Origin: a virus
Strand: one strand, 5' to 3'
DNA length: 64,000 nt
IMG/VR virus record: IMGVR_UViG_3300020036_002522
Shown here: piece by piece, positions 8,021 to 62,591 of the stretch
Layout: each line of letters begins with the position of its first letter
How positions within the stretch are numbered: position 1 is the stretch's first letter
Position numbers and translations under genes: made by a program
Notes under the pieces: generated by a model
What the model was told of the DNA's origin: nothing
What the model saw: the letters and a program-made list of their open reading frames with translations, nothing else
The model's database searches: none

Positions 8021-8323
8021 ATGCGCTACTACTCAAAAATCGTAAAGCAGCGCGTCAAGGCCGGGCCTAACACACCCGGCCTTGAACTTGCCCGTCTCGC
8101 TATCCTGCGGGACATCTCAATAAAAGAGATTGCTTATCTACTAGGCGCGTCGAGAATGACGGTCTACAATTGGTTTGCTGGCAGACAGACAACCAACGCC
8201 TACCGGCAGCGCGTAACACAACTTGTCAACATATTGAAGACAGCGCCCGACAATGACGCTGCATGGAGTAAAGCATGCGAGACCTTTCACCCCCAAACAC
8301 AACCGGTAACCAACCAGAAGTAA
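8021..8323 (+). CDS. helix-turn-helix DNA-binding protein
   Basis: 100 aa. ISIKEIAYLLGASRMTVYNWFAGRQ is a typical HTH segment. Confidence 0.6.
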   Translation: MRYYSKIVKQRVKAGPNTPGLELARLAILRDISIKEIAYLLGASRMTVYNWFAGRQTTNAYRQRVTQLVNILKTAPDNDAAWSKACETFHPQTQPVTNQK

Positions 8324-11222: not shown

Positions 11223-11413
11223 AGAAATACCCTTGGCCGCAGACGCAGCCCGGGGAAAGTTTCTTTGTGCCGGCGCTCGACACGGACAAGGCGGTGCTGG
11301 AGGGGCGGCAAGCTGCCGCGCACTACGATGTGCGCGGCTACTCCTACAAGGTGTGCGTCTACAAAGGCATACTGGGCGTCATGTTCAAACGTCGATCGCG
11401 TCAAGCTCTTTGA
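11192..11413 (+). CDS. hypothetical protein
   Basis: 73-aa ORF overlapping the primase end. It converges on, and overlaps by 29 nt, the stop of the giant minus-strand gene. Coding status is uncertain. Confidence 0.3.
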   Translation: MSSHKPPDRLKKYPWPQTQPGESFFVPALDTDKAVLEGRQAAAHYDVRGYSYKVCVYKGILGVMFKRRSRQAL

Positions 11414-48484: not shown

Positions 48485-50023
48485 TCAACCGTAATACGCC
48501 TTCTGCCGGGCCCGGAAATCCTCAACATTATCGTCAAAATCATTCGCGAGTCGAATAAATCCGCCGTCCCGGTACCGCGATATGCACATCTGCAGGCAGT
48601 CAACCTCGTCGTCGTTGGCGCCGAACGGGAACTCCGCCACCACGTCGATCAGCGCGTGGGCCCACCGCGTATCGGGCGCGTACACCAGCCCGGACGAGAA
48701 AATGTCGGATATGGCGTTCACCCGAGCGTACTTGTCGTTGGAAATGCCGTTGCCCTTGCGGCTCGGGCTCACTTCCTGCACGACGATGTTCATCCGACGC
48801 AGTTCCTGTATCAGCGGAGCGCCGGCAGCCTTCTTTTCAACGATAAGCGAGTCAGGTTCCCATTGTTTCCAGTGCTCCAGTACCTTGATCTTCAGCTCTG
48901 GGAACTCCCAGCGCCCTTTGATGCAGTCCAAAACGATAATTCTGCTCTCGTTGTCCTCGGTTGTCCACACTCCGACGGTCACGCACGCTGAGTAGTCGGC
49001 CCGGGTCTTCGCTTCGTGCGCCGTATCCCACGCCTGGATGATGAACTCTACCTTCGGCGGCTTCTCGTGCGGCCAAATCTTCCACCATTCGCGTTTTATG
49101 AGCGCGCCCTCCTCGGAGGTAGGTTCTTGCATGTACTGCGCGGACCAAAACTGCTGCAACATCGACGCCTTTTTGGAGAGTAGCTGCTCAACAGGCCACT
49201 GTTCTGGCCATAACGACTTACCAGAAGGCAAAATCGCCGGAAAGCGTACTTCCAACCACTGCGGTGAGTCCGGATTGTCGATCGCCCACTGCAGCGCGCG
49301 CCCGATCGGGTCTTTTTTGCCCCAGCGCGTGCCGATCATCACTATTTTACCGTCCGGCATCAGCCGCTGCAGCGGGCCGATCTGCATGTACTCCCACGCA
49401 TTGGCGAACTGCACCTCCGGATTGGCCAGCATCGCCTGCTCCGACACCAAGTCATCACAAATCAGCAGGTGGGCGCCGTGGCCGGCCACGTTGGCCCCGA
49501 TACCGATGGCCAGATATTTCCCGCCGAGCGTCGTCGCCCAGTTGGATGAAGCGCTCTTGTCCTTGGAGACGATGGTGTCGGGGAAAATCTCCTTGTACTT
49601 GGCGTCGTCGATCAGGTTGCGCACCTTGCGCCCGAAGTCTGCGGACAGGTCGGCCGTGTGCGTCACCATCATGATGTGGTGGGACGGGTTGTGCCCAAGG
49701 TACCACGCGACGAACAGAAAGGCGACGGTCTCCGACTTGGAGAAGCGCGGCGGCATGCTCACGGTAACCCGCGGCTCGGTGCCGTCTTTGGTGCGGTGCA
49801 GGATCGGTTTCAGGAACCGGTGATGTGGCCCCTCTTTGAAGTTCGGGTAAACGTAATGGCAGAACGCCATGAAGTCATCCTTGGCCGCGCGTATCGTGCG
49901 CGAATGCTGCCACTTCTCGATGTCGCCCAGCAGCGCCTCCTGCTCCTTACCCTGCATCCCCGGTACGGCCGCAAGAAGCGCCTCGATGTCCGCTTCGGTA
50001 AGGTCGTGCTGCTCGTCCATCAT
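48485..50023 (-). CDS. terL: terminase large subunit
   Basis: 512 aa. PPRFSKSE P-loop-like segment, Walker B HLLICDDL, and C-terminal nuclease acidic residues (IQAWDTA, FGANDDEVD). Confidence 0.85.
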   Translation of the reverse strand: MMDEQHDLTEADIEALLAAVPGMQGKEQEALLGDIEKWQHSRTIRAAKDDFMAFCHYVYPNFKEGPHHRFLKPILHRTKDGTEPRVTVSMPPRFSKSETVAFLFVAWYLGHNPSHHIMMVTHTADLSADFGRKVRNLIDDAKYKEIFPDTIVSKDKSASSNWATTLGGKYLAIGIGANVAGHGAHLLICDDLVSEQAMLANPEVQFANAWEYMQIGPLQRLMPDGKIVMIGTRWGKKDPIGRALQWAIDNPDSPQWLEVRFPAILPSGKSLWPEQWPVEQLLSKKASMLQQFWSAQYMQEPTSEEGALIKREWWKIWPHEKPPKVEFIIQAWDTAHEAKTRADYSACVTVGVWTTEDNESRIIVLDCIKGRWEFPELKIKVLEHWKQWEPDSLIVEKKAAGAPLIQELRRMNIVVQEVSPSRKGNGISNDKYARVNAISDIFSSGLVYAPDTRWAHALIDVVAEFPFGANDDEVDCLQMCISRYRDGGFIRLANDFDDNVEDFRARQKAYYG

Positions 50024-50676
50024 GTGTCTTTAGCGTACGTGGGCGCTACGCGCGCCACGATGGCGATCTCTTTCACCTCGGCGTCCTGCACCTCGATTGT
50101 TGGCGGGAGCAAGGACTTGAGTTTAGCGCGTAACCGTTCTTCGATGACACTTGAGTCTTCGTTCTTGTGCGTGACCTCGGAGCGTTCGGTGAAGGCGGCT
50201 ACCTCCGTTATCTTGCCGATAAGCTCCAGCGCCTTGAGCCGGTTGCGCGCCACGGGGTCCTTGGTCTCCTCCAGCAGCTTGGCCACCACGAAGCCGCGAA
50301 GCTGTTTGGCCTGCTCCACGAAGTCCCAGTCGTAGGCACTGAGCATCCCCACGAGATGGCGTACGGCCGCCGGTGTACGGAGGTTCTTGATGTCGGTGAG
50401 CTGCTTGTCCGGGGGTGCGCCGGCGGTGAGCGCTGCGAAGGCCTGCTGGGCGAGCGCACTGTCGCGTGGTTTGGGTGGGGCGCCGGTTACTGGTGCGGTG
50501 TCGTCATCCAGCCAGTCGAGCGTTTCCACCTGCGCGTTGAAGATGGCTTCCGCGGGTAGGTCGTCGATGTCGGTAAACTCTGGCGATAGAAGGTGCTCGA
50601 ATAACATGCAAAGCCCTTGTAATATACGAAATGTAGCATATAATGGCGGCGTGGGGTTTAGTTGTGTTTTCCTCAC
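50020..50676 (-). CDS. putative terminase small subunit
   Basis: First gene of the virion block. Its stop overlaps the terL ATG. The GTG start at 50676 has AAGGAG about 10 nt upstream. The assignment is positional only. Confidence 0.4.
   Translation of the reverse strand: MRKTQLNPTPPLYATFRILQGLCMLFEHLLSPEFTDIDDLPAEAIFNAQVETLDWLDDDTAPVTGAPPKPRDSALAQQAFAALTAGAPPDKQLTDIKNLRTPAAVRHLVGMLSAYDWDFVEQAKQLRGFVVAKLLEETKDPVARNRLKALELIGKITEVAAFTERSEVTHKNEDSSVIEERLRAKLKSLLPPTIEVQDAEVKEIAIVARVAPTYAKDT
50617..50644 (+). promoter_or_regulatory. sigma70-like promoter TTGTAA-N16-TATAAT, antisense within the terS 5' end
   Basis: -35 at 50617-50622 and a perfect -10 at 50639-50644. It points toward the terminator at 50699-50731. 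Confidence 0.45.
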
Positions 50677-50731
50677 AAACGTGATGCTCCTTGAATTAAG
50701 CCCCGGCGCGCAATGCTCCGGGGCTTTTTTT
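50651..50731 (+). ncRNA. candidate ~80-nt cis-antisense RNA covering the terS start codon and RBS
   Basis: Defined by the promoter at 50617-50644 and the intrinsic terminator at 50699-50731. It is complementary to the terS GTG (50674-50676) and AAGGAG (50686-50691). Confidence 0.35.
50699..50731 (+). terminator. intrinsic terminator (plus-strand orientation)
   Basis: AGCCCCGG-(11-nt loop)-CCGGGGCT followed by a run of 7 T. No plus-strand protein gene lies upstream for 39 kb. Confidence 0.6.
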
Positions 50732-50781
50732 CGTCCGTGGTGCTATGTTTTTTATAGCAAAAAAATTTATGAAATTAATAG

Positions 50782-50810
50782 TTGACAAAATTACTATGGA
50801 TTGGTAATCG
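50782..50810 (+). promoter_or_regulatory. candidate early promoter TTGACA-N17-TAATCG with extended -10 TG
   Basis: Perfect -35 at 50782-50787, TG at 50802-50803 and -10 at 50805-50810. It sits in the AT-rich divergent region upstream of the right-arm genes. Confidence 0.4.
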
Positions 50811-50973
50811 TTCTTCTGACACAGTGTTCTATATCGGCGCCGTCGTGGCACATAGCAAGTGGGGGTAGGGGGGTAGTGGGGTCAACCGAGGGAGGGTTGC
50901 CGACCCCCATTCCTACAATTGAGGTATCGAAAGACGCTAGGGTGTTACCAAGCATTCGGTATAGGAGGCCATC

Positions 50974-51405
50974 ATGGCTGCTAAGACTCTCTCCCCCACA
51001 GTTTCCACAACAACACTGGCTCACGTCAACACGTTGGTGCTTGCCGCACTGTCCTACCAAGACGCTGTGCAAATCGTGCGCAAGGACTACAACGAAGGCA
51101 AGCTCTCGAAAAACAATGCCAAAATCGCATTGGCCACGGCATACGTGCATCACAAGAAGTCCTATGCCGACCAACGTGATGCTGAGACTGGCAAGGCATT
51201 GCGTAGCACAGCCTTGGAGCAGCAGGTTAACCGCATGCTTCGAGACATCACCGCAGACGATGCAGACAAAATGTCTGCAAAGGTTGCAGACAAGATCGTG
51301 CTGACTGCCGCACAAGTACGCTTACTCAAGGAGCTGGACGCGACCTTCGACACATACGCATCAATGCGTAAGGGCATCCTGTCATACATCGCAACTGCAC
51401 AGTAA
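50974..51405 (+). CDS. hypothetical early protein
   Basis: 143 aa, with AGGAGG 5 nt upstream of the ATG. Confidence 0.6.
   Translation: MAAKTLSPTVSTTTLAHVNTLVLAALSYQDAVQIVRKDYNEGKLSKNNAKIALATAYVHHKKSYADQRDAETGKALRSTALEQQVNRMLRDITADDADKMSAKVADKIVLTAAQVRLLKELDATFDTYASMRKGILSYIATAQ
51261..51279. promoter_or_regulatory. palindrome copy 1 (TGCAGACA-AAA-TGTCTGCA), intragenic
   Basis: Perfect 19-bp palindrome. It is flanked by extra GCAGAC half-sites at 51253 and 51286. Confidence 0.7.
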
Positions 51406-51627
51406 GCGTATATACGTTTATTCAATCACCGTCGGATTCCTGCTACGGAGTTATCTGAGCGCGGGGATTCGGCGGGTTCAATACCCCTCGTACAGTAGCG
51501 GGCGCAACAGAGTAGGCCGGCACAGTAGCGGGCGTACAGGTTTGTGCGCCGCGCGCCACACCAAAGCGTTCCCATCCTGTAGCCTTGCGAGTCAGGGCTA
51601 TGTGGTGCGTCGCATGTCGCGAACACT

Positions 51628-51646
51628 TGCAGACAATATGTCTGCA
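51628..51646. promoter_or_regulatory. palindrome copy 2 (spacer ATA), 20 nt upstream of ATG 51667
   Basis: TGCAGACAATATGTCTGCA. Confidence 0.7.
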
Positions 51647-51666
51647 CAACACGTTAAGGAACTATC

Positions 51667-51966
51667 ATGTCAAAAGCAAACTACAACTACACCGTCACCC
51701 GCGCTGCTCGTATGGCCCTGGCCCTCAAGCGCGAATGGACTCGTGAGCACTTCCACATGGCAGCGCACGACCTCGGACAACTGACCACTCATGCAGACAT
51801 TTTGTCTGCACCTGTCGTTACGGTGGAAACGCTCCCAGACTTCGGCCCGTGGGCACGTGCATGGGTCAACGGTACAGTAAGCGTACATCCCACCTACGAG
51901 GCGATTCGAGTCATCAAGGTGCCCGGAATCCGCACGCGGCGCCTCGTTGAGCATCAGTTCCGCTAA
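51667..51966 (+). CDS. hypothetical early protein
   Basis: 99 aa, with AAGGA upstream. Confidence 0.55.
   Translation: MSKANYNYTVTRAARMALALKREWTREHFHMAAHDLGQLTTHADILSAPVVTVETLPDFGPWARAWVNGTVSVHPTYEAIRVIKVPGIRTRRLVEHQFR
51792..51810. promoter_or_regulatory. palindrome copy 3 (spacer TTT), intragenic
   Basis: TGCAGACATTTTGTCTGCA. Confidence 0.7.
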
Positions 51967-52322
51967 TAGAAGGCATTCAAAAGTACATACGCATAAGGTA
52001 TTCTTATAGCGTATGTACGCTTTCTCGTGGTTTTCATGATTTTCAATGTGCGTATGCCATTACCTTACGCCGTGCCGCGTTTGAGCGTTGATTTGTATGG
52101 CTTTTCTCTTTTACTTCTCTTTATTTATCTATATCTAATTAAATTAAGGTAAGAAGGAGAATAAAAGAGAATACGTACGCTCGCCCTTCTCGCTCTCGGA
52201 CTTACGTAAAGTCCTTCCCATAGATCAATGCTTGCTCTTTTTTTCTGCGAGGTAATTTATGTGAAGCTCGGGAGAGCTAGTATCCATGCGGGTTCCGCGA
52301 GGAAGGCCTCGGTTTACGTGCA

Positions 52323-52350
52323 TCGAAATCACGGAAATATCACGTATACT
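52323..52350 (+). promoter_or_regulatory. weak sigma70-like promoter TCGAAA-N16-TATACT
   Basis: The -10 TATACT at 52345-52350 lies 7 nt upstream of palindrome copy 4. The -35 is poor. Confidence 0.3.
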
Positions 52351-52357
52351 GTGTGAA

Positions 52358-52374
52358 GCAGACATTTTGTCTGC
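52358..52374. promoter_or_regulatory. palindrome copy 4 (17-bp core), 13 nt upstream of ATG 52388
   Basis: GCAGACATTTTGTCTGC, directly followed by A-CTAAGGAG (the RBS). Confidence 0.7.
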
Positions 52375-52387
52375 ACTAAGGAGTCCT

Positions 52388-53236
52388 ATGAAAGCATCTA
52401 AAACCTTCCGGCTGCTCCGTGAGAATGGACTGTCGGTTACAGAGGCAGAACGCTTGACAAAGCAGATTTGCAAGCAAAACGACGTACGCATTAAGCTGAC
52501 CGCTGCGCGCGACTGGTCGCGGCTGCTGGAGCCGCTAAACGCTGACATCAAGAACAAGCAGTCCAACATGGCGCGTTGGCGTAAGGATGCACAGTGGGCG
52601 GAGAAGGGGCCGGTATATGAACCGTACCTGACCGTGCTGTTGCGTACCAAGCAAACCATCCAGCAAGCGTACACGCTCAATCTGGACAACCTCACCATAC
52701 CCGAGATCGCCGCTAAGCGGGGGCTGCCGGGCGACGGGCTGCACTGGAGCAACTGGGTGCCGCGAAGAGTGCACTCCGCATTCATGGAGGCGTTCGACGT
52801 ACTGTACGCCAAGATCGAGTGTCGCGGTAAGCGTATCGTCCCGTTCAGTGCGTCGATGGAGCAGAGCGCATCCGATGTGCGGTGGGACAAGCTCATCGCT
52901 TGGCTTGCCAAGGAGCTGTCTGCGCGTACCACGGTCACCATGGAGCACACCGGACGCTACGACGGTGACGCCATCCTCATAGACACGCTCAACGAAGCGC
53001 TAGACGTTGCCTACACTAGGGGCGTGGACGACGTGGCCCCGGTGAATTGGGTGCACTTGCTGCCGCCTGAACGGCAGAAAGAACTGGCCGACTGGCGCGC
53101 GGCAACGCTCAACGGACTGCGCGACCCCGACAAACTACACGCAGCGACCGAAGCCCTGCACGACGCTACCGCTGCCCGCGAGAAAGAGCGCACCGAGAAG
53201 CGCCGGGCAGCGGCCGGCCGTGCGCACCACTCATAG
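52388..53236 (+). CDS. hypothetical early protein (282 aa)
   Basis: The ATG at 52388 follows TAAGGAG. The longer track start (52286) lacks an RBS and would run through the palindrome. Confidence 0.55.
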   Translation: MKASKTFRLLRENGLSVTEAERLTKQICKQNDVRIKLTAARDWSRLLEPLNADIKNKQSNMARWRKDAQWAEKGPVYEPYLTVLLRTKQTIQQAYTLNLDNLTIPEIAAKRGLPGDGLHWSNWVPRRVHSAFMEAFDVLYAKIECRGKRIVPFSASMEQSASDVRWDKLIAWLAKELSARTTVTMEHTGRYDGDAILIDTLNEALDVAYTRGVDDVAPVNWVHLLPPERQKELADWRAATLNGLRDPDKLHAATEALHDATAAREKERTEKRRAAAGRAHHS

Positions 53237-53252
53237 TCCCGCACCGAACACA

Positions 53253-53271
53253 TGCAGACAAAATGTCTGCA
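53253..53271. promoter_or_regulatory. palindrome copy 5 (spacer AAA), intergenic
   Basis: TGCAGACAAAATGTCTGCA, flanked by direct ACCGAAC repeats. It lies 53 nt upstream of ATG 53325. Confidence 0.7.
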
Positions 53272-53324
53272 TACCGAACCCCGCCGCCTGTCGGTTACAG
53301 GCAAACAACGTAAGGAGTGCCATC

Positions 53325-53672
53325 ATGGCCAAAACAAACACAACACCGCTTCCCGCAGAAGTCACCGACGCCTGCATCCGGTTTTTCAAACTGGTGGCGA
53401 CACACAAGCCCGCCATCCTGAACGTACCCGATGCGGAGCCCTTCCTGCGCCTGATCAACAGCATGGATGTGCTGGACTTCAAGATACCCCTATTGACGCT
53501 CGACACCGCGCACGAGTACATCCGGGCCCGTGAGCAGCAGTTCACCGAGCGCGAGAACAAGCTGCGCGAACGTGAGGCCGGCATCGTGCTGTGGCAGAAA
53601 CAGTTGGACGCGGAGTGCAAAGCGATCTCCAAGCAGGTGCTGTCTCTCCCCAAGCTGCGGATGAAGGAGTAA
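53325..53672 (+). CDS. hypothetical early protein
   Basis: The ATG at 53325 follows TAAGGAG. 115 aa. Confidence 0.55.
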   Translation: MAKTNTTPLPAEVTDACIRFFKLVATHKPAILNVPDAEPFLRLINSMDVLDFKIPLLTLDTAHEYIRAREQQFTERENKLREREAGIVLWQKQLDAECKAISKQVLSLPKLRMKE

Positions 53673-53676
53673 CACA

Positions 53677-53880
53677 ATGATCACACTCACGAAACCACAA
53701 CGCAAAGCGCTCCACAAGGTGTGGCTGCGCACATGTGCCACGCTGCCAGCCCCAGCGTACCAGTCATACCGGCCCTATCGCGCTTTCCGACGCACGGTGC
53801 AGCACGGGCCCGGATGTGTCATGGTGCAGTTTGCCGGGATGTGGCTGGGCATCGAGCCCGACGGCTACACCCATAGCTGA
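53677..53880 (+). CDS. hypothetical small protein
   Basis: 67 aa, with AAGGAG upstream. It ends GMWLGIEPDGYTHS. Confidence 0.55.
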   Translation: MITLTKPQRKALHKVWLRTCATLPAPAYQSYRPYRAFRRTVQHGPGCVMVQFAGMWLGIEPDGYTHS

Positions 53881-53882
53881 CC

Positions 53883-54197
53883 ATGCAAGGCAACGGCAAC
53901 GGCGACGGCGGCTACGGCGGCTACGGCGGCTACGGCTACGGCTACGGCAACGGCAACGGCGACGGCTACGGCAACGGCAACGGCTACGGCAACGGCAACG
54001 GCTACGGCAACGGCTACGGCAACGGCTACGGCTACGGCAACGGCGACGGCAGCGGCTACGGCGACGGCGACGGCAACGGCGGCTACGGCAACGGCAATCC
54101 CCCACGCTGCCTCACCTACGACGCACCCGTAGACCCCTTGCCAGCCCTCTTCTTGATAACGTATTTTTTGAATCCGCCACTGGTCGGCCACCAGTAA
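53883..54197 (+). CDS. Gly/Tyr/Asn-repeat protein, paralogue 1 (104 aa)
   Basis: The frame is supported by the synonymous-difference pattern against paralogue 2 in the tail GNPPRCLTYDAPVDPLPALFLI. The ATG lies 2 nt after the upstream stop. Confidence 0.65.
   Translation: MQGNGNGDGGYGGYGGYGYGYGNGNGDGYGNGNGYGNGNGYGNGYGNGYGYGNGDGSGYGDGDGNGGYGNGNPPRCLTYDAPVDPLPALFLITYFLNPPLVGHQ
53889..54092 (+). repeat. degenerate GGCTACGGC/GGCAACGGC/GGCGACGGC microsatellite-like tract
   Basis: ~200 bp of 3- and 9-nt periodic repeats encoding the GYG/GNG/GDG units. All three frames on both strands are open here. Confidence 0.8.
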
Positions 54198-54212
54198 CTT
54201 AGGAGAACCACA

Positions 54213-54473
54213 ATGTCAAAAGTAATAAACCACAACAAACGCATCGTAGTCCTGCAAGCGGGTTGGGTGTTCATCGGCAACTACCACGCCGCAACCGATA
54301 CGAAACCCGCGTACATCACCGACGCATACAACATCCGAAAGTGGGGCACAACCACAGGCCTTGGCGAAATCGCGCTCAACGGACCCACTAAAGACACCGT
54401 GCTGGACCCTTGCGGTATCGTCCTGCTTGATACGCCCGCCAACGTCCTGTTTACCATCCCTTGCGAGCAGTAG
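54213..54473 (+). CDS. hypothetical protein
   Basis: 86 aa, with AGGAG upstream. It lies between the two GY paralogues. Confidence 0.55.
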   Translation: MSKVINHNKRIVVLQAGWVFIGNYHAATDTKPAYITDAYNIRKWGTTTGLGEIALNGPTKDTVLDPCGIVLLDTPANVLFTIPCEQ

Positions 54474-54698
54474 ATGCAAGGCGACGGCAACGGCAACGGC
54501 AACGGCTACGGCTACGGCTACGGCTACGGCGACGGCGGCTACGGCGGCTACGGCTACGGCGACGGCGACGGCAGCGGCTACGGCGACGGCAGCGGCAGCG
54601 GCAGCTACGGCAGCGGCAATCCCCCACGCTGCCTCACCTACGACGCGCCGGCGGACCCACTCCCTTCCCTTTTCGTAATTTCAGGAGCACTGACATGA
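54474..54698 (+). CDS. Gly/Tyr/Asp-repeat protein, paralogue 2 (74 aa)
   Basis: The ATG directly follows the upstream TAG. The first codons are the same (ATGCAAGGC) and the tail GNPPRCLTYDAPADPLPSLFVI is conserved. Confidence 0.65.
   Translation: MQGDGNGNGNGYGYGYGYGDGGYGGYGYGDGDGSGYGDGSGSGSYGSGNPPRCLTYDAPADPLPSLFVISGALT
54480..54614 (+). repeat. second GGCTACGGC/GGCAACGGC/GGCAGCGGC tract
   Basis: Same repeat type as 53889-54092. Confidence 0.8.
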
Positions 54699-54892
54699 GC
54701 AAAATTTCACCACTCACGAAGCAAGAACAGTTGGCACTCGACCGGGAACGGCTGGCCATATTCGTGCGAGAGATCAAGCACTACAAAACGCGCTGGGGCC
54801 TGCAGCCCGATCGCATCGCTTTCCGAGACGCTTGGAAGGCAACCCAATTGCAGACATTTTGTCTGCATCAACCAGAAGGAGTATCGAAATGA
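54695..54892 (+). CDS. hypothetical small protein
   Basis: 65 aa. The ATG at 54695 follows AGGAG and overlaps the GY2 stop. The 3' end carries palindrome copy 6. Confidence 0.5.
   Translation: MSKISPLTKQEQLALDRERLAIFVREIKHYKTRWGLQPDRIAFRDAWKATQLQTFCLHQPEGVSK
54849..54867. promoter_or_regulatory. palindrome copy 6 (spacer TTT), 21 nt upstream of ATG 54889
   Basis: TGCAGACATTTTGTCTGCA. Confidence 0.7.
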
Positions 54893-55257
54893 AAGTCAAA
54901 GTATCAACCGCGTCCGGCCCCGTGCTGGACAGGATGGTGGCGAAGCTCGTTGGGAAGTCCTATGTTAAGGGCGATACCGACTATGCGCCTGACGGCCGCA
55001 TTTATCAGCGCGGCACTGCACAACCAACCGGGCCACACTACTCCACTGACTGGGCACAAGGCGGGCCGATCATTGAGCGGGAGGGCATCTGTTTTGCCTC
55101 TATTCGAAAGGGCAGAAAGATAGCCGGGTGGCGGGCGGCATATAGAAAGGACGGCGTATTCGGATTCGACAGTTCTACCACACTGATCGCAGCGTGCAGA
55201 TGCTTCGTGACATCGAAATTGGGTGATGAAGTCGAGGTGCCTGATGAACTCGCCTAA
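54889..55257 (+). CDS. DUF2591/NinX-like protein
   Basis: MKVKVSTASGPVLDRMVAKLVGKS recalls the NinX-type N-terminus (..L.G.ALD.AVA.A.G). GAAGGAG lies upstream, with ATGA coupling. Confidence 0.4.
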   Translation: MKVKVSTASGPVLDRMVAKLVGKSYVKGDTDYAPDGRIYQRGTAQPTGPHYSTDWAQGGPIIEREGICFASIRKGRKIAGWRAAYRKDGVFGFDSSTTLIAACRCFVTSKLGDEVEVPDELA

Positions 55258-55555
55258 CCCCACGCAGCCACGCACCGCTCATATCGCCAACAACGCGACG
55301 CTATTTGTCAACCGCAAGGGCCAGATCACACTGGACCCACGCATCGTGTACCGGGAAGGGGCGCCGGTGATCGAGGTACGCACGCGCTACACCCACGGGG
55401 TGGCATCGCAGGGGCCCTTCTACTACATCACGACTACCTACCCGTTGACGGTCATACCCACCACACCCAAGGATCGCAAGGAGTTGCTACGCAACATGGC
55501 CACGCTCCACGCTATGACCTTGGGACACCCACACAAACTAAGGGGAAAGCTATGA
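55244..55555 (+). CDS. hypothetical protein
   Basis: The ATG at 55244 follows GAGGTG. 103 aa. Confidence 0.45.
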   Translation: MNSPNPTQPRTAHIANNATLFVNRKGQITLDPRIVYREGAPVIEVRTRYTHGVASQGPFYYITTTYPLTVIPTTPKDRKELLRNMATLHAMTLGHPHKLRGKL

Positions 55556-56217
55556 CAACCGACGTCGAAGAAAAGACCGTGTTCAAGTTCACCGAACTAA
55601 GCCAACGCGCAAAAGAGAGCGCCATCGGCCGCTACGCCATGCCTGGCTACGACTGGTGGGACGCCACCATCGACGACTACAAGTCCGACCCGGACGTCAA
55701 AGCCAAGGGCTACGACATCGACGAGATTTATTTCTCGGGCTTCAGCTCGCAGGGTGACGGGGCTTGCTGGAAGGGGCGTGTATTCCTGAAGCCGTGGATC
55801 ACCACGCATATGGTGGCGCCCGAGGATGCTGTGAAGCGCGAGATACTGCTGGCGCTGATCGAGGAGGGTTGGATTTCATCGTCTGCCAAGATCACCACGG
55901 CGGGGCGGTACAGCCATAGCTACACGATGTCTATAGACGACATCCCGCAGTACACCGAGGACAACGACGGTGACGGGCTGCTGGCCATAGAGGGGCTGTT
56001 CAAAGATGCGCGTGTCGGAGACCTGTTCGACGCCATCGGCGGGCAGGCCGCGATCGACGCACTGGAGGCAGACATTTTGTCTGCATGCCGGGAGCTGGCC
56101 GACACGATATACAAAGACCTTGAGGACGAGTACGACGGGTACTTTGAAGAGGATGCGTTTGCCGATACCGCCGCGGTGAACGAATGGGAGTTCGACGAGA
56201 ACGGCGTTTTAATCTAG
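55552..56217 (+). CDS. hypothetical acidic protein (221 aa)
   Basis: ATGA coupling. FTELSQRAKESAIGRY...DWWD...FSGFSSQGDGACW...NEWEFDENG recalls a plasmid/phage leading-region family that I cannot name. Confidence 0.5.
   Translation: MTTDVEEKTVFKFTELSQRAKESAIGRYAMPGYDWWDATIDDYKSDPDVKAKGYDIDEIYFSGFSSQGDGACWKGRVFLKPWITTHMVAPEDAVKREILLALIEEGWISSSAKITTAGRYSHSYTMSIDDIPQYTEDNDGDGLLAIEGLFKDARVGDLFDAIGGQAAIDALEADILSACRELADTIYKDLEDEYDGYFEEDAFADTAAVNEWEFDENGVLI
56068..56084. promoter_or_regulatory. palindrome copy 7 (17-bp core), intragenic
   Basis: GCAGACATTTTGTCTGC. Confidence 0.7.
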
Positions 56218-56226
56218 GAGAAAAGT

Positions 56227-56418
56227 ATGGACGCTTTTGAAAACGAAGATGACGTGCGCTGCGCTAGGTGCGGTGCAATACCAGAAGAAATCGTTTGGGA
56301 CTGCGATTTCGATTATGACGGCAACGACCGTGTGCACGAGTACGGCAAGTACGACTGCCAGTGTGGGCACAGCGAGAAGTTCCAGACCAACGATCCTTAT
56401 GCTGGGGACGAAGACTAA
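56227..56418 (+). CDS. small zinc-ribbon-like protein
   Basis: 63 aa. CARCG ... CQCGH, with an acidic tail. AGGAGAA lies upstream. Confidence 0.5.
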   Translation: MDAFENEDDVRCARCGAIPEEIVWDCDFDYDGNDRVHEYGKYDCQCGHSEKFQTNDPYAGDED

Positions 56419-56435
56419 CTTAAAAGGAGCAACAC

Positions 56436-56663
56436 ATGAATGAAGACCTAAACCCCCTGCAACTGTTGGTTGCGCAGCACTACGCCAACGGCATATACGC
56501 CAGCGTGAAGGACACCAACGACGTGGCGCACGTTGACGAACCCCTGTTCACGCGCTTGATCGCGTCTGCTGCCGAGTGCAGCGGGCCCTACGATCTGACC
56601 GGACAGTTGTACCGCGCCCGCGATGCCATCAGTGCGCTGGCCACCATCTTTGAAACCCTTTAA
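56436..56663 (+). CDS. hypothetical small protein
   Basis: 75 aa, with AAGGAG upstream. Confidence 0.5.
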   Translation: MNEDLNPLQLLVAQHYANGIYASVKDTNDVAHVDEPLFTRLIASAAECSGPYDLTGQLYRARDAISALATIFETL

Positions 56664-56675
56664 GGAGAAAACACA

Positions 56676-57569
56676 ATGTTATCAAACACACGCAACCTGC
56701 AACGCGCAAACTCATACGAAGACTGCCTTGATCTTTTCGCCAAGATCAGCAAGCCCCGAGGAAGCGGCTGGAGCGAGAACGAGCGTCCACTGGGCAGCAA
56801 GTACCAGCGCCACTACCGCGTCGAGCGCCGCTACAACGGGGACTGGTTCGACGTCATCCTGTACCACACCACAATGGCACGCTTCTACAAGCCCGAGGCG
56901 GACGGCAGCTACCGGGTGCAGTATTCGTGGGACAGCCGGACAACCAGCAGCCAATTCATGCACCACGTGGTGCATGTCAATCAGGTGGAGATGTACCGTA
57001 CCAAAGACGGAGAACGCAAGGTGCCAATCGGCCCGGGTGAACTGAGCACCGACCTGTGGATAACGCCCCTTGGCACGCTGGATATGGCCCGGAGTCACCA
57101 CTCACAAGTGTACGTACCCAAGGTAAGCGAGGAGTTCAAGGCGTGGCGCAAGGCGTTTCGAGAGAACCTGTCCAATATCTGTTTCCTGTTGGAGCAGACG
57201 GTGCCGGAGGTGATCGCTACCCACACCCCGGATGCAAATGACGGGCACCCGTTCAGAAGTAGCAAGACAAGCACGTGGGAGCTGCGCTATTGGGACGGGG
57301 AGACGCTGCAGGAGAGCGTTATCGAGCACTTGCGCACCATGTATGCACAGGCAACGCGCAGCCTCATGGACAAGCGGGAGTACAAGGCCACGCCCCGCAG
57401 GTATTCATGGAGGCAGAAGGAACTGGCGGATTATGTCGATCCTACTCCACAAGAGGTTACACGTAGCGTGCTGGCCCTGCTGGAGGCGGGTACGTGGGCT
57501 CCGAAGCGCCACGACGCAGTACCGCTGCCGATGTTTCCCACGGAGCTGCCAAAGAACTGGACACTCTGA
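56676..57569 (+). CDS. hypothetical protein (297 aa)
   Basis: TAAGGAGAA lies upstream. No motif recognised. Confidence 0.55.
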   Translation: MLSNTRNLQRANSYEDCLDLFAKISKPRGSGWSENERPLGSKYQRHYRVERRYNGDWFDVILYHTTMARFYKPEADGSYRVQYSWDSRTTSSQFMHHVVHVNQVEMYRTKDGERKVPIGPGELSTDLWITPLGTLDMARSHHSQVYVPKVSEEFKAWRKAFRENLSNICFLLEQTVPEVIATHTPDANDGHPFRSSKTSTWELRYWDGETLQESVIEHLRTMYAQATRSLMDKREYKATPRRYSWRQKELADYVDPTPQEVTRSVLALLEAGTWAPKRHDAVPLPMFPTELPKNWTL

Positions 57570-57585
57570 TTTTAGGGTGTACACT
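57558..57585 (+). promoter_or_regulatory. sigma70-like promoter TGGACA-N16-TACACT
   Basis: -35 at 57558-57563 and -10 at 57580-57585. Palindrome copy 8 starts 11 nt downstream. Confidence 0.4.
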
Positions 57586-57595
57586 AACACGACGG

Positions 57596-57614
57596 TGCAG
57601 ACATAATGTCTGCA
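57596..57614. promoter_or_regulatory. palindrome copy 8 (spacer TAA), intergenic, 62 nt upstream of ATG 57677
   Basis: TGCAGACATAATGTCTGCA. Confidence 0.7.
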
Positions 57615-57676
57615 CCTGAAAGCCAAGGGTCAGCCGCCCCTATAACAGCGGTCAAACACAACTTAGAGTAAACATT

Positions 57677-58813
57677 ATGACTACTATTGACATCCTGTCC
57701 CACAAGCAAATCTCCAACCTGATCAAGGCTACGGGCCACGAGCAGACCATCCTGATCGAAGGCGAGGCCGGCGTGGGCAAGACCGCTATTGCACACGAGT
57801 TCGCAACTGACCCGTTCTTCGCCAACCATCTGATCGTCAAGCCCATCGACTGCACCCAGTTGAGCGACGGTTCTGTGTGGATGCCGGACATCGACCGTGA
57901 TGCAGGCGTGTCCCGAGAGTTGCCAAACGAGCGGTTCGGAGTGCATAACGCCAACCAGCGCAGCGTGCACGGTAGCGTGCCGATTGTGGTGTGCTTGGAC
58001 GAGATCGCCAAGGCGCGGCAGTTCATTAAAGACGTCTTGGCACCCATCGTCTACGAGCAGCGTATCGGCCAGTACCACATGCCAGAGGGGTCGGTGGTGT
58101 TCGGCTGTACCAACCTGAGCGAAGAGGGTTTGGGCGACGCTATGCAGGCACACTTGCGTAACCGTATCACCATCGTGCGCATGCGCAAGCCAACGCAGAA
58201 GGAGTGGGTCAACGACTTCGCCATCCCCAAGAAGCTGAGCCCTGAGTTGATCGCTGCCACGGAGATGTTCCCCCAAATCTTCGATTCCTTCCTCGACTAC
58301 GAGCCGGGCGGCAAGTTCGAGGGCAAGTCCATCGGCAAGCACAACGCATGGATCGCCAACCCCAAGGACGCAGGCCAAGGGCAGGTGGTGACGCCGCGCT
58401 CGCTGCACAGCGCATCGAAGATCATCAACAACAGCAAGCGTGCCGGTACCGTAGATGATCAGACGCTGCAAGCCGCGCTCAATGGTACCGTGGGGCCAGC
58501 GTTCGGTAGCGAGCTGACATCGTTTATCCGCTTCGGGCGTGACATCCCGTCGTTCGAGCGCGTTGTCAAGGACCCCGCTGGTTGCCCGATGCCGGAGTCC
58601 CCCGTTGCGCAAATTGTCCAGACGTTCCAGCTCATCACCCAGACCAGCAACTACGAGCAGGCCGAAGCCGTGACCGAGTACGTGGCGCGTCGCAAGGGCG
58701 AGATGCAGTCCCTGTTCATCAGCAGCATCGCCAACAGCAGCGCCATCAGCATGTTCGCGACGTCGAAAATCTTCGGAAAATTATTGGGCGAGAACCGCAA
58801 GTTCTTTAACTAA
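57677..58813 (+). CDS. AAA+ ATPase (MoxR/CobS-like)
   Basis: 378 aa. Walker A IEGEAGVGKTAIA, Walker B IVVCLDEIAKA. Confidence 0.7.
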   Translation: MTTIDILSHKQISNLIKATGHEQTILIEGEAGVGKTAIAHEFATDPFFANHLIVKPIDCTQLSDGSVWMPDIDRDAGVSRELPNERFGVHNANQRSVHGSVPIVVCLDEIAKARQFIKDVLAPIVYEQRIGQYHMPEGSVVFGCTNLSEEGLGDAMQAHLRNRITIVRMRKPTQKEWVNDFAIPKKLSPELIAATEMFPQIFDSFLDYEPGGKFEGKSIGKHNAWIANPKDAGQGQVVTPRSLHSASKIINNSKRAGTVDDQTLQAALNGTVGPAFGSELTSFIRFGRDIPSFERVVKDPAGCPMPESPVAQIVQTFQLITQTSNYEQAEAVTEYVARRKGEMQSLFISSIANSSAISMFATSKIFGKLLGENRKFFN

Positions 58814-58824
58814 GGAGAAAACAC

Positions 58825-60084
58825 ATGGCTTGGAAAGATTTGACCCCGCGCGAGCGGATCACTGCTGCGTCGTTCGACATCATGCGCGACGACGAGTTCT
58901 GCCTTATGGGTGGGGCTACACAAATCGGCAAGGTGGAGATGGTGGGTGACGACGTGATGCCTACTGCCGGCACCGATGGCCGCGACGTGTTCTACAACAC
59001 GGACTTCGTTACGGGCTTGACGCGCAAGATGGTGCGCATGTTAGTTGCGCATGAAACACTACACAAGATGCTCATGCATTGCGTGGAGTACACGTCCATT
59101 GTCGAGAAACACCCTGACGCGTCCAACATGGCGATGGATCACGTGGTCAACCTGATGATCGAGGACTTGGACGCCGGGCGCGGGTTCATCGAATGGATTG
59201 TGGAGCCACCACCACTCATGGATGCCAAGTACCGTGGCATGTCGTTCCTCGAAGTTCTGCAGGACCTGTTGAAGAACCCCCCACCGCAGCAGCCGCAGAA
59301 CGGTAGGCCGCAGGCCGGTGCAGGTAAACCCGGACAGCCCGGCGGTACCTTGGATCAGCACATCCCGGGCAAGAAGCAGGGTATGCCGGGTGCAGACAAA
59401 ATGTCTGCAGAGGAGGTCGACAAACTCAAGCAGGATATGCAGGACGCCAATGCCCAAGGCCAGATCGTGCGCGAGAAGATGCTGGCCAAGAAGCGCGGTG
59501 CAGCCGGTAGCGGCGGGCGTGTCGGTGGGTTCCAAGAGCGGCGCACGGATTGGAAAGGACCGTTGCGCCGGTTCATACAGGACTTGGCCGAGGGTGACGA
59601 GATGTCCCGATTCAGCCCGCCCAACAAGCGCTTGCAACCGCTTGGGATTCTCCTGCCATCACACTACAGTGAGGCAGTGGGCGAGATCATCATAGCCTGC
59701 GACACATCAGGCTCCATGACCGGGGTGTACCCCACGGTGTTCGGTGAGGTGGCGCGCATCTGCCAGCAAGTCAAGCCGGCCAAGGTGCGGATGATCTGGT
59801 GGGATACCAAGATCGCGGGCGAGCAGACGTTCACTGCGCGCGACTACGACAAGATCGCCAAGCAGCTGAAACCTGCCGGGGGTGGGGGCACCACGGTGTC
59901 GTGTGTAGCGGAGCACATCAAGGCCAAGAAGATCAAGGCCCGGTGCATCATCATGCTGACCGACGGGTATATCGAGCACCAGTACAGCATGGCGCCCATC
60001 CCGCATCTATGGGGTATCGTCGACAACACCGGCTTCAAGCCGCTCAAGGGCAAGAAGATCGACATCCAGTCGGTGGGGCTATGA
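58825..60084 (+). CDS. VWA-domain protein with N-terminal HExxH metallopeptidase-like domain (DUF2201-like)
   Basis: 419 aa. LVAHETLHKMLMH (HExxH), and the MIDAS motif IIACDTSGSMTG (DxSxS). It is paired with the upstream AAA+ gene. Confidence 0.7.
   Translation: MAWKDLTPRERITAASFDIMRDDEFCLMGGATQIGKVEMVGDDVMPTAGTDGRDVFYNTDFVTGLTRKMVRMLVAHETLHKMLMHCVEYTSIVEKHPDASNMAMDHVVNLMIEDLDAGRGFIEWIVEPPPLMDAKYRGMSFLEVLQDLLKNPPPQQPQNGRPQAGAGKPGQPGGTLDQHIPGKKQGMPGADKMSAEEVDKLKQDMQDANAQGQIVREKMLAKKRGAAGSGGRVGGFQERRTDWKGPLRRFIQDLAEGDEMSRFSPPNKRLQPLGILLPSHYSEAVGEIIIACDTSGSMTGVYPTVFGEVARICQQVKPAKVRMIWWDTKIAGEQTFTARDYDKIAKQLKPAGGGGTTVSCVAEHIKAKKIKARCIIMLTDGYIEHQYSMAPIPHLWGIVDNTGFKPLKGKKIDIQSVGL
59391..59409. promoter_or_regulatory. 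palindrome copy 9 (spacer AAA), intragenic
   Basis: TGCAGACAAAATGTCTGCA inside the VWA gene, followed by GAGGAGG. Confidence 0.7.
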
Positions 60085-61783: not shown

Positions 61784-61980
61784 AGAACCCGTTCGCACCA
61801 CTCATGAATATGTACCGACGTCCGTCGCCGCAGGCCGTGGCATCCGACGATCTGTATGACGCCGAGCACTCGCTGCTCGAAGCGCTGAAAGACCGTGAGT
61901 GGGCTGAGGCGCGCATCGCCGCCTATGAGGCTCGTCTGCAACGTCTGCGGGTGTACATCATCAAAGGGGAAGCAGCATGA
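61780..61980 (+). CDS. hypothetical small protein
   Basis: 66 aa, ATGA-coupled at both ends. Confidence 0.45.
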   Translation: MKNPFAPLMNMYRRPSPQAVASDDLYDAEHSLLEALKDREWAEARIAAYEARLQRLRVYIIKGEAA

Positions 61981-62591
61981 CAATGCAACAAATCAAACAC
62001 CGCCACACAGGCTCCGTATTGTTCGAATATGAATCTGGATCTGGATTAAGCATGCGCGAAGCGTTGGAAAAGGCAACGACAGCGAAAGCGAGCCTGGGCG
62101 GCGCGAACCTGCGCGGCGCGGACCTGGGCGGCGCGAACCTGTACGGCGCGAACCTGCGCGGCGCGAACCTGGGCGGCGCGAACCTGTACGGCGCGAACCT
62201 GCGCGGCGCGAACCTGCGCGGCGCGAACCTGTACGGCGCGAACCTGTACGGCGCGGACCTGCGCGGCGCGGACCTGGGCGGCGCGGACCTGGGCGGCGCG
62301 AACCTGCGCGGCGCGAACCTGTACGGCGCGAACCTGGGCGGAAAGAAACTCATTGGGGGCCGTCCGTTTTTCATTATTGGCCCCATTGGTTCGCGCGGTG
62401 ACTACGTGCAAGCATGGATCACAGATGCTGGCGTCATGATCCGCGCCGGTTGCTTTTTCGACACTCGCAATCAGTTCGAGTTGGCCCTTGATGCCACGCA
62501 TGGACAAAACAATCACGGCCAAGAGTACCGCGCGGCCCTGGTATTGATCGACAAGCATGCAGAGTTGTGGACACCGAAGGAGTTGACATGA
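61977..62591 (+). CDS. pentapeptide-repeat protein
   Basis: 204 aa with 16 consecutive A-[ND]-L-[RGY]-G pentapeptides. They are flanked by unique N- and C-terminal domains. Confidence 0.8.
   Translation: MTMQQIKHRHTGSVLFEYESGSGLSMREALEKATTAKASLGGANLRGADLGGANLYGANLRGANLGGANLYGANLRGANLRGANLYGANLYGADLRGADLGGADLGGANLRGANLYGANLGGKKLIGGRPFFIIGPIGSRGDYVQAWITDAGVMIRAGCFFDTRNQFELALDATHGQNNHGQEYRAALVLIDKHAELWTPKELT
62096..62340 (+). repeat. 16 tandem near-identical 15-bp units (GGCGCGAACCTGNNC type)
   Basis: Directly visible tandem array. Long ORFs are open in several frames on both strands across it. Confidence 0.85.

Follow-up and report, generated by a model that had tools for sequence, protein, structure and literature searches.

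What role do nine perfect palindromes with identical arms play among the early genes of a phage? The stretch analysed here, 64,000 nucleotides of the IMG/VR virus record IMGVR_UViG_3300020036_002522 (the window), represents ~64 kb of a phage genome whose source contig measures 67,941 bp, and the palindromes, GCAGACA-N3-TGTCTGC (GCAGACANNNTGTCTGC), are confined to its rightward early operon. The repeats are real, restricted to that operon, lineage-specific, selected for their sequence, and co-vary with one helix of E1, the product of the first early gene. The reading that we favour, while placing it somewhat short of an even chance, sees the palindromes as sites scattered along double-stranded DNA and bound by an early regulator that the phage encodes and that has two-fold symmetry; E1 is the best candidate, and the sites would act in the manner of mycobacteriophage stoperators or Cluster O repeats. 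We infer that E1 binds the sites, that the target is DNA rather than RNA, and that the effect is repression.

An exact search of the window returned nine matches, starting at 51262, 51629, 51793, 52358, 53254, 54850, 56068, 57597 and 59392. These are 17-mer start coordinates; the first-pass annotation of the same sequence, which had likewise counted nine copies and none elsewhere in the window, gave 19-mer positions, which are lower by one wherever a T flanks the arm. Permitting up to two mismatches added a single, unrelated match at 26296, the rest of the genome holds only scattered isolated half-sites, and the roughly 3.2–3.9 kb of the source genome that lie outside the window, where small open reading frames (ORFs) only are found, contain no further copy. 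No palindrome match arose in any of 100 dinucleotide-preserving shuffles, which agrees with the earlier claim of more copies than chance would give; a chance origin of the nine palindromes is excluded. A copy-by-copy listing also confirmed that the arms are invariant and that only the centre varies (TTT in four copies, AAA in three, ATA and TAA in one each). Seven of the nine copies are 19-bp palindromes (TGCAGACA-N3-TGTCTGCA), those at 52358 and 56068 being only 17 bp long, and an A directly follows the right arm in all nine.

Relatives of the phage were found by a motif scan of viral contigs and then fetched via TerL, PolA and the capsid protein (loci are numbered with the prefix L); the primase, used as an anchor, returned only two loci. 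One close relative from the motif scan, L034, carries six copies in 5.8 kb and has an extra palindrome-plus-gene unit compared with the window. A more distant group, family 2, whose TerL is ~50% and whose capsid protein is ~80% identical, carries four or five copies of an extended palindrome, AACTnGCAGACA-N3-TGTCTGCnAGTT, in the syntenic early region. The possibility raised at first pass, that the motif might be absent from syntenic relatives, turned out differently: every related lineage carries several copies of a palindrome of its own, all of them within this early region as far as the loci examined extend, and replication-module loci of relatives contained no palindromes. Across the family there are ~20 arm types, with a spacer that is fixed per lineage and mostly N2 or N3. 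They include GCAGACA, GTAGACA-N3, GCGGACA-N3, CGGGACA-N2/-N3, AGGGACA-N2/-N3, AAGGACA-N3 and CGGGTCA-N3, and further TGATACA-N3, AGTATCA-N3, AGAGAGA-N2, GAGAGAA, the pair TTAGGCAA/TTGCCTAA, AGGTGCA-N2, GGGGAAC-N2 and TTAGGCA. Relatives have ~2–9 copies per genome, compared with nine in the window, and all fall within the early operon. The family is widespread in metagenomes, mostly from freshwater. The element is conserved as a kind, while its sequence is specific to the lineage, and since the motif varies between close relatives, a host factor is unlikely to be its reader.

Does selection act on the sequence of the arms or on their pairing? The second possibility is that the palindromes work as RNA hairpins, with a 7–9-bp stem 5′ of ribosome-binding sites in the early polycistronic mRNA, with a role in 5′ or 3′ stability, in processing or in attenuation, or as what a sequence-specific RNA-binding protein recognises; such a protein might be E1, in the manner of lambda N on boxB, or a translational regulator comparable to RegA of T4. 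We regard this as unlikely, yet serious. In 60 orthologous site pairs from close relatives, the arms had changed at 6 of 840 positions (0.7%), compared with 11% in the flanks and 26% in the centres. Changes in near-copies with one mismatch fall mostly on the innermost arm base and never on an internal stem position, and among these mismatch variants there was neither a wobble (G-U-type) nor a compensatory change at internal stem positions. Arms frozen in this way, without wobble or compensation, argue that the base sequence is read and not the hairpin alone; RNA elements usually show the opposite of a frozen stem around a free loop. The earlier suggestion of an RNA stem-loop is therefore contradicted in its purely structural form by the frozen arms, although an RNA-level role remains a serious contender.

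What structure-only selection looks like in the same context is shown by the covariation of a second hairpin in the same leaders. This element, GCCNGT-CGGYN-ACNGGC, is present in four lineages; it lies at 53286–53302 in the window and is also found in L034, L163, L150, L137 and L138, 6–15 nt past some of the palindromes and before the ribosome-binding site. Its stem covaries (G:C, A:T, T:A), even within one genome, its loop has a conserved CGG, and it is probably a structured RNA leader motif. That a true RNA hairpin nearby does covary weighs against a hairpin role for the palindromes themselves.

Further features of the sites also point to sequence rather than pairing. In family 2, an outer AACT/AGTT is conserved symmetrically even though the position between it and the core is often non-complementary, and the conserved unit is therefore a symmetric sequence and not a longer stem. 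In the window lineage, 45 of 45 centre bases are A or T in a genome of 58% GC, with AAA and TTT about equally frequent on the sense strand. A centre restricted to A/T and symmetric between strands fits indirect readout and is typical of a non-contacted spacer in duplex DNA, and is hard to rationalise for an RNA loop in which AAA and UUU are interchangeable but G and C are excluded. Orthologous centres are sometimes inverted within identical flanks (TTT versus AAA, as in L001 at 5614 versus L031 at 4504, and L163 at 13810 versus L150 at 13575), which indicates that the palindromes are prone to template switching. No consistent strand bias of mismatches or centres was detected, an apparent 13 versus 4 having fallen to ~7 versus 4 after orthologues were collapsed, and the centre bias is inconsistent between lineages.

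If the sequence is read, which protein reads it? The early region is otherwise hypervariable, with only E1, E4 and a NinX-like protein present in most lineages examined, and positional homologues of E1 occur in all lineages. E1 (50974–51405, plus strand) is a protein of 143 aa without a known domain and is the candidate cognate binder. We aligned 16–17 lineage representatives and compared arm distance with protein distance in sliding 7-column alignment windows, controlling for the rest of the protein. A central helix at about aa 78–90 (TALEQQVNRML, encoded at ~51205–51243) gave the highest partial Mantel correlation of 129 such windows (r 0.62–0.64), a maximum that was reached by 0 of 1000 label permutations (family-wise p ≤ 0.001), with shared ancestry only partly controlled and the helix having been noticed by eye before the scan. 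The same helix, TALEQQVNRML in the window, reads ETARKRVQRL in L129; K-K-A-V-S/T-R-like helices go with GGGACA or AGGACA arms, and E-Q-Q/R-V-N/D-R-like helices with AGACA arms. The pattern holds even between the window and family 2, whose E1 proteins otherwise barely align.

Two other proteins were evaluated as readers. E4 (52388–53236, plus strand; 282 aa), the first gene product of the second early unit, has homologues in several lineages, recognisable by a W.HLL motif and a variable N-terminus. It is an unlikely binder, in that its N-terminus is helix-turn-helix (HTH)-like in the window and a zinc ribbon in family 2, yet the arms are the same. The second is an HTH protein encoded at 8021–8323 (100 aa, conserved in relatives, with a weak match to HTH_23), which the first-pass annotation had named as a possible binder of the sites as operators. 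Its recognition helix, VTRQTVYNWF, is identical in relatives whose palindromes are CGGGTCA, TGATACA, AGAGAGA and GAGAGAA, and an identical helix across four differing palindromes cannot set the specificity.

The positions of the copies relative to genes and promoters bear on how such sites could act (coordinates below are those of the full palindrome, given without strand). Copies 2, 4, 5, 6 and 8 precede start codons by 21, 13, 54, 22 and 63 nt, close to the 12–62 nt estimated previously. Copy 2 (51628–51646, ATA centre, which is AAA in its L034 ortholog) lies ahead of the ATG at 51667. Copy 4 (52358–52374, 17 bp, TTT) is found 7 nt past a sigma70-like −10 box and ahead of the E4 ATG at 52388, and copy 5 (53253–53271, AAA) is intergenic, ahead of the ATG at 53325 and with the second hairpin downstream. 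Copy 6 (54849–54867, TTT) precedes the ATG at 54889 of the NinX-like gene, and copy 8 (57596–57614, TAA) lies 11 nt past the −10 box of TGGACA-16-TACACT and ahead of the ATPase ATG at 57677. The two putative promoters next to copies 4 and 8, P2 (TCGAAA-16-TATACT, 52323–52350, plus strand) and P3 (57558–57585, plus strand), are consensus matches only.

Four copies are found inside ORFs. Copy 1 (51261–51279, AAA) lies within the E1 gene, where it encodes ADKMSA, part of an ADKMSAK peptide kept in E1 homologues, and is followed directly by a third half-site at 51285–51292. Copy 3 (51792–51810, TTT) encodes HADILSAP within the ORF at 51667–51966 and is kept in L034; copy 7 (56068–56084, 17 bp, TTT) encodes EADILSAC within a 221-aa gene (55552–56217), whose family-2 homologues lack the palindrome; and copy 9 (59391–59409, AAA) encodes GADKMSAE within the VWA/DUF2201 gene. 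The four share the frame A-D-[IK]-[LM]-S-A, as had been noted, but copy 6 (17-mer start 54850) additionally overlaps the 3′ end of the ORF at 54697–54892 in another frame (Q-T-F-C-L). The shared frame had been taken as a sign that the element is imposed on the coding sequence; codon content explains it better, as either alternative frame would require Cys and rare codons.

The presence of two copies past −10 boxes suggested classical promoter-overlapping operators bound by the HTH protein at 8021–8323. The two boxes stand, 7 and 11 nt from their copies, and together with the weak HTH_23 match they are what this explanation has in its favour. The operator-like placement itself did not survive comparison: it concerns only two of the nine window copies, and in the family a sigma70-like promoter was detected upstream of 4 of 96 non-redundant sites versus 3 of 96 in a mirrored control, so that copies 4 and 8 are the exception to a promoter-free rule. 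With a recognition helix that cannot set specificity, operators for this protein are highly improbable. The broader proposal of sites for a dimeric phage regulator is the one we retain, without the promoter-operator logic and without the HTH protein.

In relatives, nearly every copy lies in a short gap, just past a stop codon and just before the ribosome-binding site of the next gene. Of 99 family sites, 72 have a Shine–Dalgarno sequence plus start codon ≤120 nt downstream at a median gap of 31 nt, which counts in favour of an RNA hairpin. The first copy in most related lineages falls within the first early gene's leader, a position like that of nutL before N, and some of these lineages have an extended −10 promoter (TGcTATAAT) upstream of it; the window has no palindrome in the E1 leader and a copy within the E1 gene instead, and in the window and L036 a different hairpin is found where other lineages hold the E1-leader palindrome. 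Also in keeping with an RNA hairpin, all copies are transcribed with the early genes, folding is predicted (free energy of ~−10 to −17 kcal/mol in 37-nt contexts), and transcription from the promoters beside copies 4 and 8 would begin 0–4 nt from the stem, as expected of a 5′ stabiliser. A hairpin would easily accommodate both N2 and N3 between the same arms, and in L129 a T tract follows five of nine sites, which score on the sense strand like intrinsic terminators.

Other observations speak against that explanation. The window copies lack a T tract and none qualifies as an intrinsic terminator on the transcribed (plus) strand; the sole terminator overlap in the window is a minus-strand match over copy 1, built with the third half-site, and terminator-like character is not general to the palindromes. 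No copy matched an Rfam 15 family at E ≤ 1. Ribonuclease III needs a stem longer than 8 bp, a requirement that the 8-bp stem does not reach. The flanks of the family-2 sites are symmetric across a non-pairing position, and the arms, rather than the loop, are what is held constant.

We therefore return to dispersed DNA sites read by an early regulator. The centres of the two arms are 10–11 bp apart, one helical turn, and hence two recognition helices could insert into consecutive major grooves from one side of the duplex. The majority of sites lie inside transcription units and not at promoters, which makes interference with elongation or promoter clearance likely. In the proposed sequence of events, the early rightward operon would be transcribed by the host RNA polymerase and E1 would be produced first. 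As E1 accumulates, it would fill the sites in and between the early genes, including, in most related lineages, a site in its own leader. Occupied sites would then modulate early expression, the likeliest outcome being a feedback shut-off in which, as with stoperators, elongation or promoter clearance is blocked. The copies at the P2 and P3 transcript starts may add direct promoter-proximal control in the window, as the E1-leader copy may do in most related lineages.

Several results weigh against this interpretation, beginning with the limits on the covariation given above. No DNA-binding domain was detected in E1 by Pfam, PHROGs or PDB profile search, and its AlphaFold model has a predicted local distance difference test score of 50, from an alignment of only 11 close homologues. 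A guess from its C-terminal pattern that E1 is a ribbon-helix-helix protein (Arc/CopG/MetJ type) found no Pfam or PDB profile match and an hhalign probability of 5.6%, and the C-terminal part does not co-vary with the arms. The arms CGGGACA and AGGGACA occur with both N2 and N3, for which a dimer would need flexibility and which is trivial for a hairpin. The remaining counterpoints are positional: the distance of most sites from promoters, by which classical operator action is excluded; the concentration of sites before translation starts; the different hairpin in the E1 leader of the window and L036, which hints at an RNA-level role; and the terminator-like sites of L129.

A more far-reaching version, which we consider improbable, is that E1 and the palindromes are a previously undescribed protein/DNA pair, that E1 has a new all-helical DNA-binding fold, and that the pair acts as a lineage "barcode" of the early region. 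The first protein made would then control only the early operon of its own genome, providing timed shut-off and discrimination of self from non-self among co-infecting relatives, and the identical sites would also be the places where exchange keeps the early gene repertoire in flux. In a bolder variant, E1-bound sites would direct site-specific cassette exchange, making the array a phage "integron".

Exchange at the sites has also been considered as their primary role, as points for the swapping, gain or loss of early-gene cassettes comparable to the stem-loops of T4-like phages or to an integron-like array; we give this little likelihood. The early region is hypervariable, yet the palindromes persist as islands together with ~20–50 nt around them. 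Within family 2, L001, L057 and L058 differ from L036 by replacement of the segment that two sites enclose, with homology ending 18–51 nt from the site centres, and L163 and L150 have a 61-bp island around one site in common. The extra palindrome-plus-gene unit of L034, the indels between Cluster O repeats, and the inverted centres, which mark the palindromes as recombinogenic or prone to template switching, fit the same explanation. However, mosaic joints fall at gene borders anyway, the breakpoints between L129 and L164 are not concentrated at sites, the L034 insertion is not flanked by two palindromes, and no site-specific recombinase was found among the scanned ORFs. Recombination also leaves unexplained the selection on every arm base, the copies inside conserved genes and the E1 covariation. 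Recombination at the repeats probably happens.

The promoter-early stem-loop (PeSL) cassettes of T4-like phages are composite terminator/promoter sequences (PMC2839356, PMC4122927). The palindromes resemble them as repeated short intergenic stem-loop motifs in hyperplastic early regions, partly at the borders of swapped blocks: palindromes lie at the junctions of swapped or indel blocks in family 2 and in L163/L150, but not in L129/L164 or at the L034 insertion. They differ in that a promoter-like signal accompanies only the 4 of 96 sites noted above, that the window copies have no T tracts, and that several copies lie inside ORFs. The PeSL-like shuffling proposed at first pass thus finds some support as a by-product in the homology breakpoints near sites, and none in a composite of promoter and terminator.

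Could each palindrome instead start an early transcript, as a promoter of the N4 hairpin type or for another phage RNA polymerase? Promoters of the N4 virion RNA polymerase lie upstream of early genes and have a 5–7-bp stem and a 3-nt loop in which the polymerase recognises one particular base, a purine of the template strand. The palindromes are alike in shape (7–8-bp stem, 3-nt centre), in their placement before early genes and in being lineage-specific, and the genome layout resembles that of N4, with a rightward early/replication arm, a leftward structural arm ending in a 3281-aa ORF, and an N4-like ATPase/VWA pair. Unlike the N4 loop, the centre is unconstrained and flips strand, and four or five copies lie inside ORFs. 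A virion RNA polymerase was not detectable here: the 3281-aa ORF (11385–21230, minus strand) had no match to N4 virion RNA polymerase chains in the PDB, no tblastn match to N4-like phages and no PHROG, and the T7-type and two-barrel polymerase motifs that were sought are absent from it. It contains an LPD38 "polyvalent protein" domain at aa 2984–3164 (Pfam) and, by inspection, a HEVAGH zincin (HExxH) motif near aa 2273 and coiled-coil-like sequence, and has the look of a polyvalent protein that is ejected rather than of an RNA polymerase. ORF scans revealed no RNA polymerase among the other ORFs of the window or in the missing 3–4 kb. Because no phage RNA polymerase was recognisable, the phage depends on the host RNA polymerase and the palindromes are not promoters of a phage polymerase. 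The N4-type explanation, listed at first pass as a speculative option, is thus already largely refuted, and we consider it very improbable.

The genome around the palindromes is organised in two arms that diverge at 50677–50973. The plus-strand arm encodes small unassigned ORFs, then the NinX-like protein, the AAA ATPase, VWA/DUF2201, DUF3150 and pentapeptide-repeat proteins, and resumes at the start of the window with PolA, a PD-(D/E)XK nuclease, an SNF2 helicase and a DUF927 primase. The minus-strand arm runs from 50676 down to 11385 and encodes a terS-like gene, TerL, portal, capsid and tail genes, and the 3281-aa ORF. When the DNA of the region was compared at near identity with 50,697 deposited phage records, no close relative was detected; the nearest terminases are those of HTVC023P-type pelagiphages (~44% identity). 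The AAA ATPase and VWA/DUF2201 pair (57677–60084, plus strand) is closest to the pair of N4-like phages (Schitoviridae), at 21–29% identity, and the combination of this pair with an HTVC023P-like terminase indicates a mosaic ancestry of modules. No integrase, site-specific recombinase or known repressor was found among the scanned ORFs of the window and the gap, family members retrieved from genome collections with the capsid protein are phage-sized contigs and not integrated prophages, and the phage family is apparently lytic. Family contigs of 55–64 kb (L329–L365), mostly from rivers and lakes, have been binned in metagenome-assembled genomes of Bacteroidota, Cyanobium, Nanopelagicales, Methylopumilus, Chloroflexota and other unrelated phyla; phage contigs of one family spread across such phyla are mis-binned and give no host.

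Several other features of the early region and its borders were recorded. At 50617–50732 (plus strand), a sigma70-like promoter (TTGTAA-16-TATAAT) stands ~55 nt ahead of a strong intrinsic terminator that consists of gccccggcgcgcaatgctccggggc and a run of T; this unit, which had only sub-threshold Rfam matches, would yield a transcript of ~80 nt resembling a small RNA, antisense to the start of the terS-like gene (50020–50676, minus strand). Three tandem G-rich units, TGGGGGTA, GGGGGGTA and GTGGGGTC, lie upstream of the first early gene at 50860–50884 and could form a protein-binding array or a G-quadruplex; GGGGT repeats of a like kind occupy the same place in the distant relatives L036, L129, L143, L163 and L150. 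A hairpin with a 10-bp stem and a T-rich tail (51983–52030) probably ends the first early unit, and behind it (region 51983–52160) comes a very AT-rich non-coding stretch, with counterparts at this position in L036 and L163, which might act as an origin or as the UP region of a promoter. The ORFs at 53883–54197 and 54474–54698 (plus strand) encode Gly/Asn/Tyr/Asp repeats (GNGNGYGYG...) with a common C-terminal tail, NPPRCLTYDAP, and L165 encodes a similar protein. A 204-aa pentapeptide-repeat protein in the early/middle arm (61977–62591, plus strand; Pfam E = 2e-42) may be a DNA mimic or a gyrase-interacting protein.

As a practical matter, the motif is a cheap metagenome marker for the early region and left end of such genomes, and the system offers a handle on early-gene timing in lytic phages that depend on the host polymerase. 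It is also a directly testable case of protein-nucleic-acid recognition. Dispersed, perfectly conserved dyad repeats have been noted in a few phages, most clearly in Cluster O, and left unexplained; the same format is now found in an unrelated, widespread family, and the system may explain a class of unexplained phage repeats.

Among known systems, lambda-type N/nut pairs a first early product with a leader hairpin. There are two nut sites per lambdoid genome, and boxB is recognised via its loop while its stems are free to vary. Here too the first early product is the candidate reader, the leader of the same gene holds a hairpin in most related lineages, and element and protein are lineage-specific. 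The differences from lambda are a count of 5–9 sites per genome, a frozen stem around a free loop, the lack of any boxA-like partner and, in the window lineage, an E1 that is not rich in arginine. Multiple identical palindromes served by one dimeric regulator are known from the conserved inverted repeats (CIRs) of phiC31, bound by repressor c, and from the OB sites of RK2 KorB. In both, the sites are dispersed through co-regulated genes, some far from promoters, and the binders are of the HTH or ParB type. These belong to a temperate actinophage and a plasmid, and no homology to anything here was found.

The closest mechanistic model is provided by the stoperators of Cluster A mycobacteriophages, which are bound by the L5 gp71 or Bxb1 gp69 repressor (PMC9283540, PMC6550527). 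In both cases many identical, phage-specific sites lie in short intergenic gaps within transcription units and not at promoters. Stoperators and their binding protein diverge together between lineages, as the arms do here with the helix of E1, the candidate binder. A block to elongation would be the common action. Stoperators differ in being 13–14 bp long, asymmetric, orientation-dependent, monomer-bound, distributed genome-wide and devoted to lysogenic immunity, compared with perfect palindromes of the early region only in a phage whose scanned ORFs include no integrase or known repressor.

In form, the closest match is the 17-bp repeat of Cluster O mycobacteriophages, 5′-TGTTCGGNNNCCGAACA (TGTTCGG-N3-CCGAACA), whose function is unexplained and which Cresawn et al. 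(2015, PMC4351075) proposed to be bound by a dimeric protein. Both elements have 7-bp inverted arms that are invariant among copies around a 3-bp, A/T-rich centre, mostly AAA or TTT and without clear orientation. Copies of both occur in small gaps between genes, close to the 5′ ends of genes and within ORFs, with few at promoters; those of Cluster O lie mostly in the non-structural arm, and in both systems indels are tied to sites. The hosts of the repeats differ, an actinobacteriophage siphovirus there and an unrelated, uncultivated, mostly freshwater phage with an HTVC023P-like terminase here, as does their number, with >30 copies genome-wide in Cluster O and nine (~2–9 in relatives) in the early operon only. 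Where only one motif type was known in Cluster O, the present family provides a natural series of ~20 lineage-specific variants, quantitative evidence for selection on sequence beyond pairing, and a specific candidate reader in E1, one helix of which changes with the motif.

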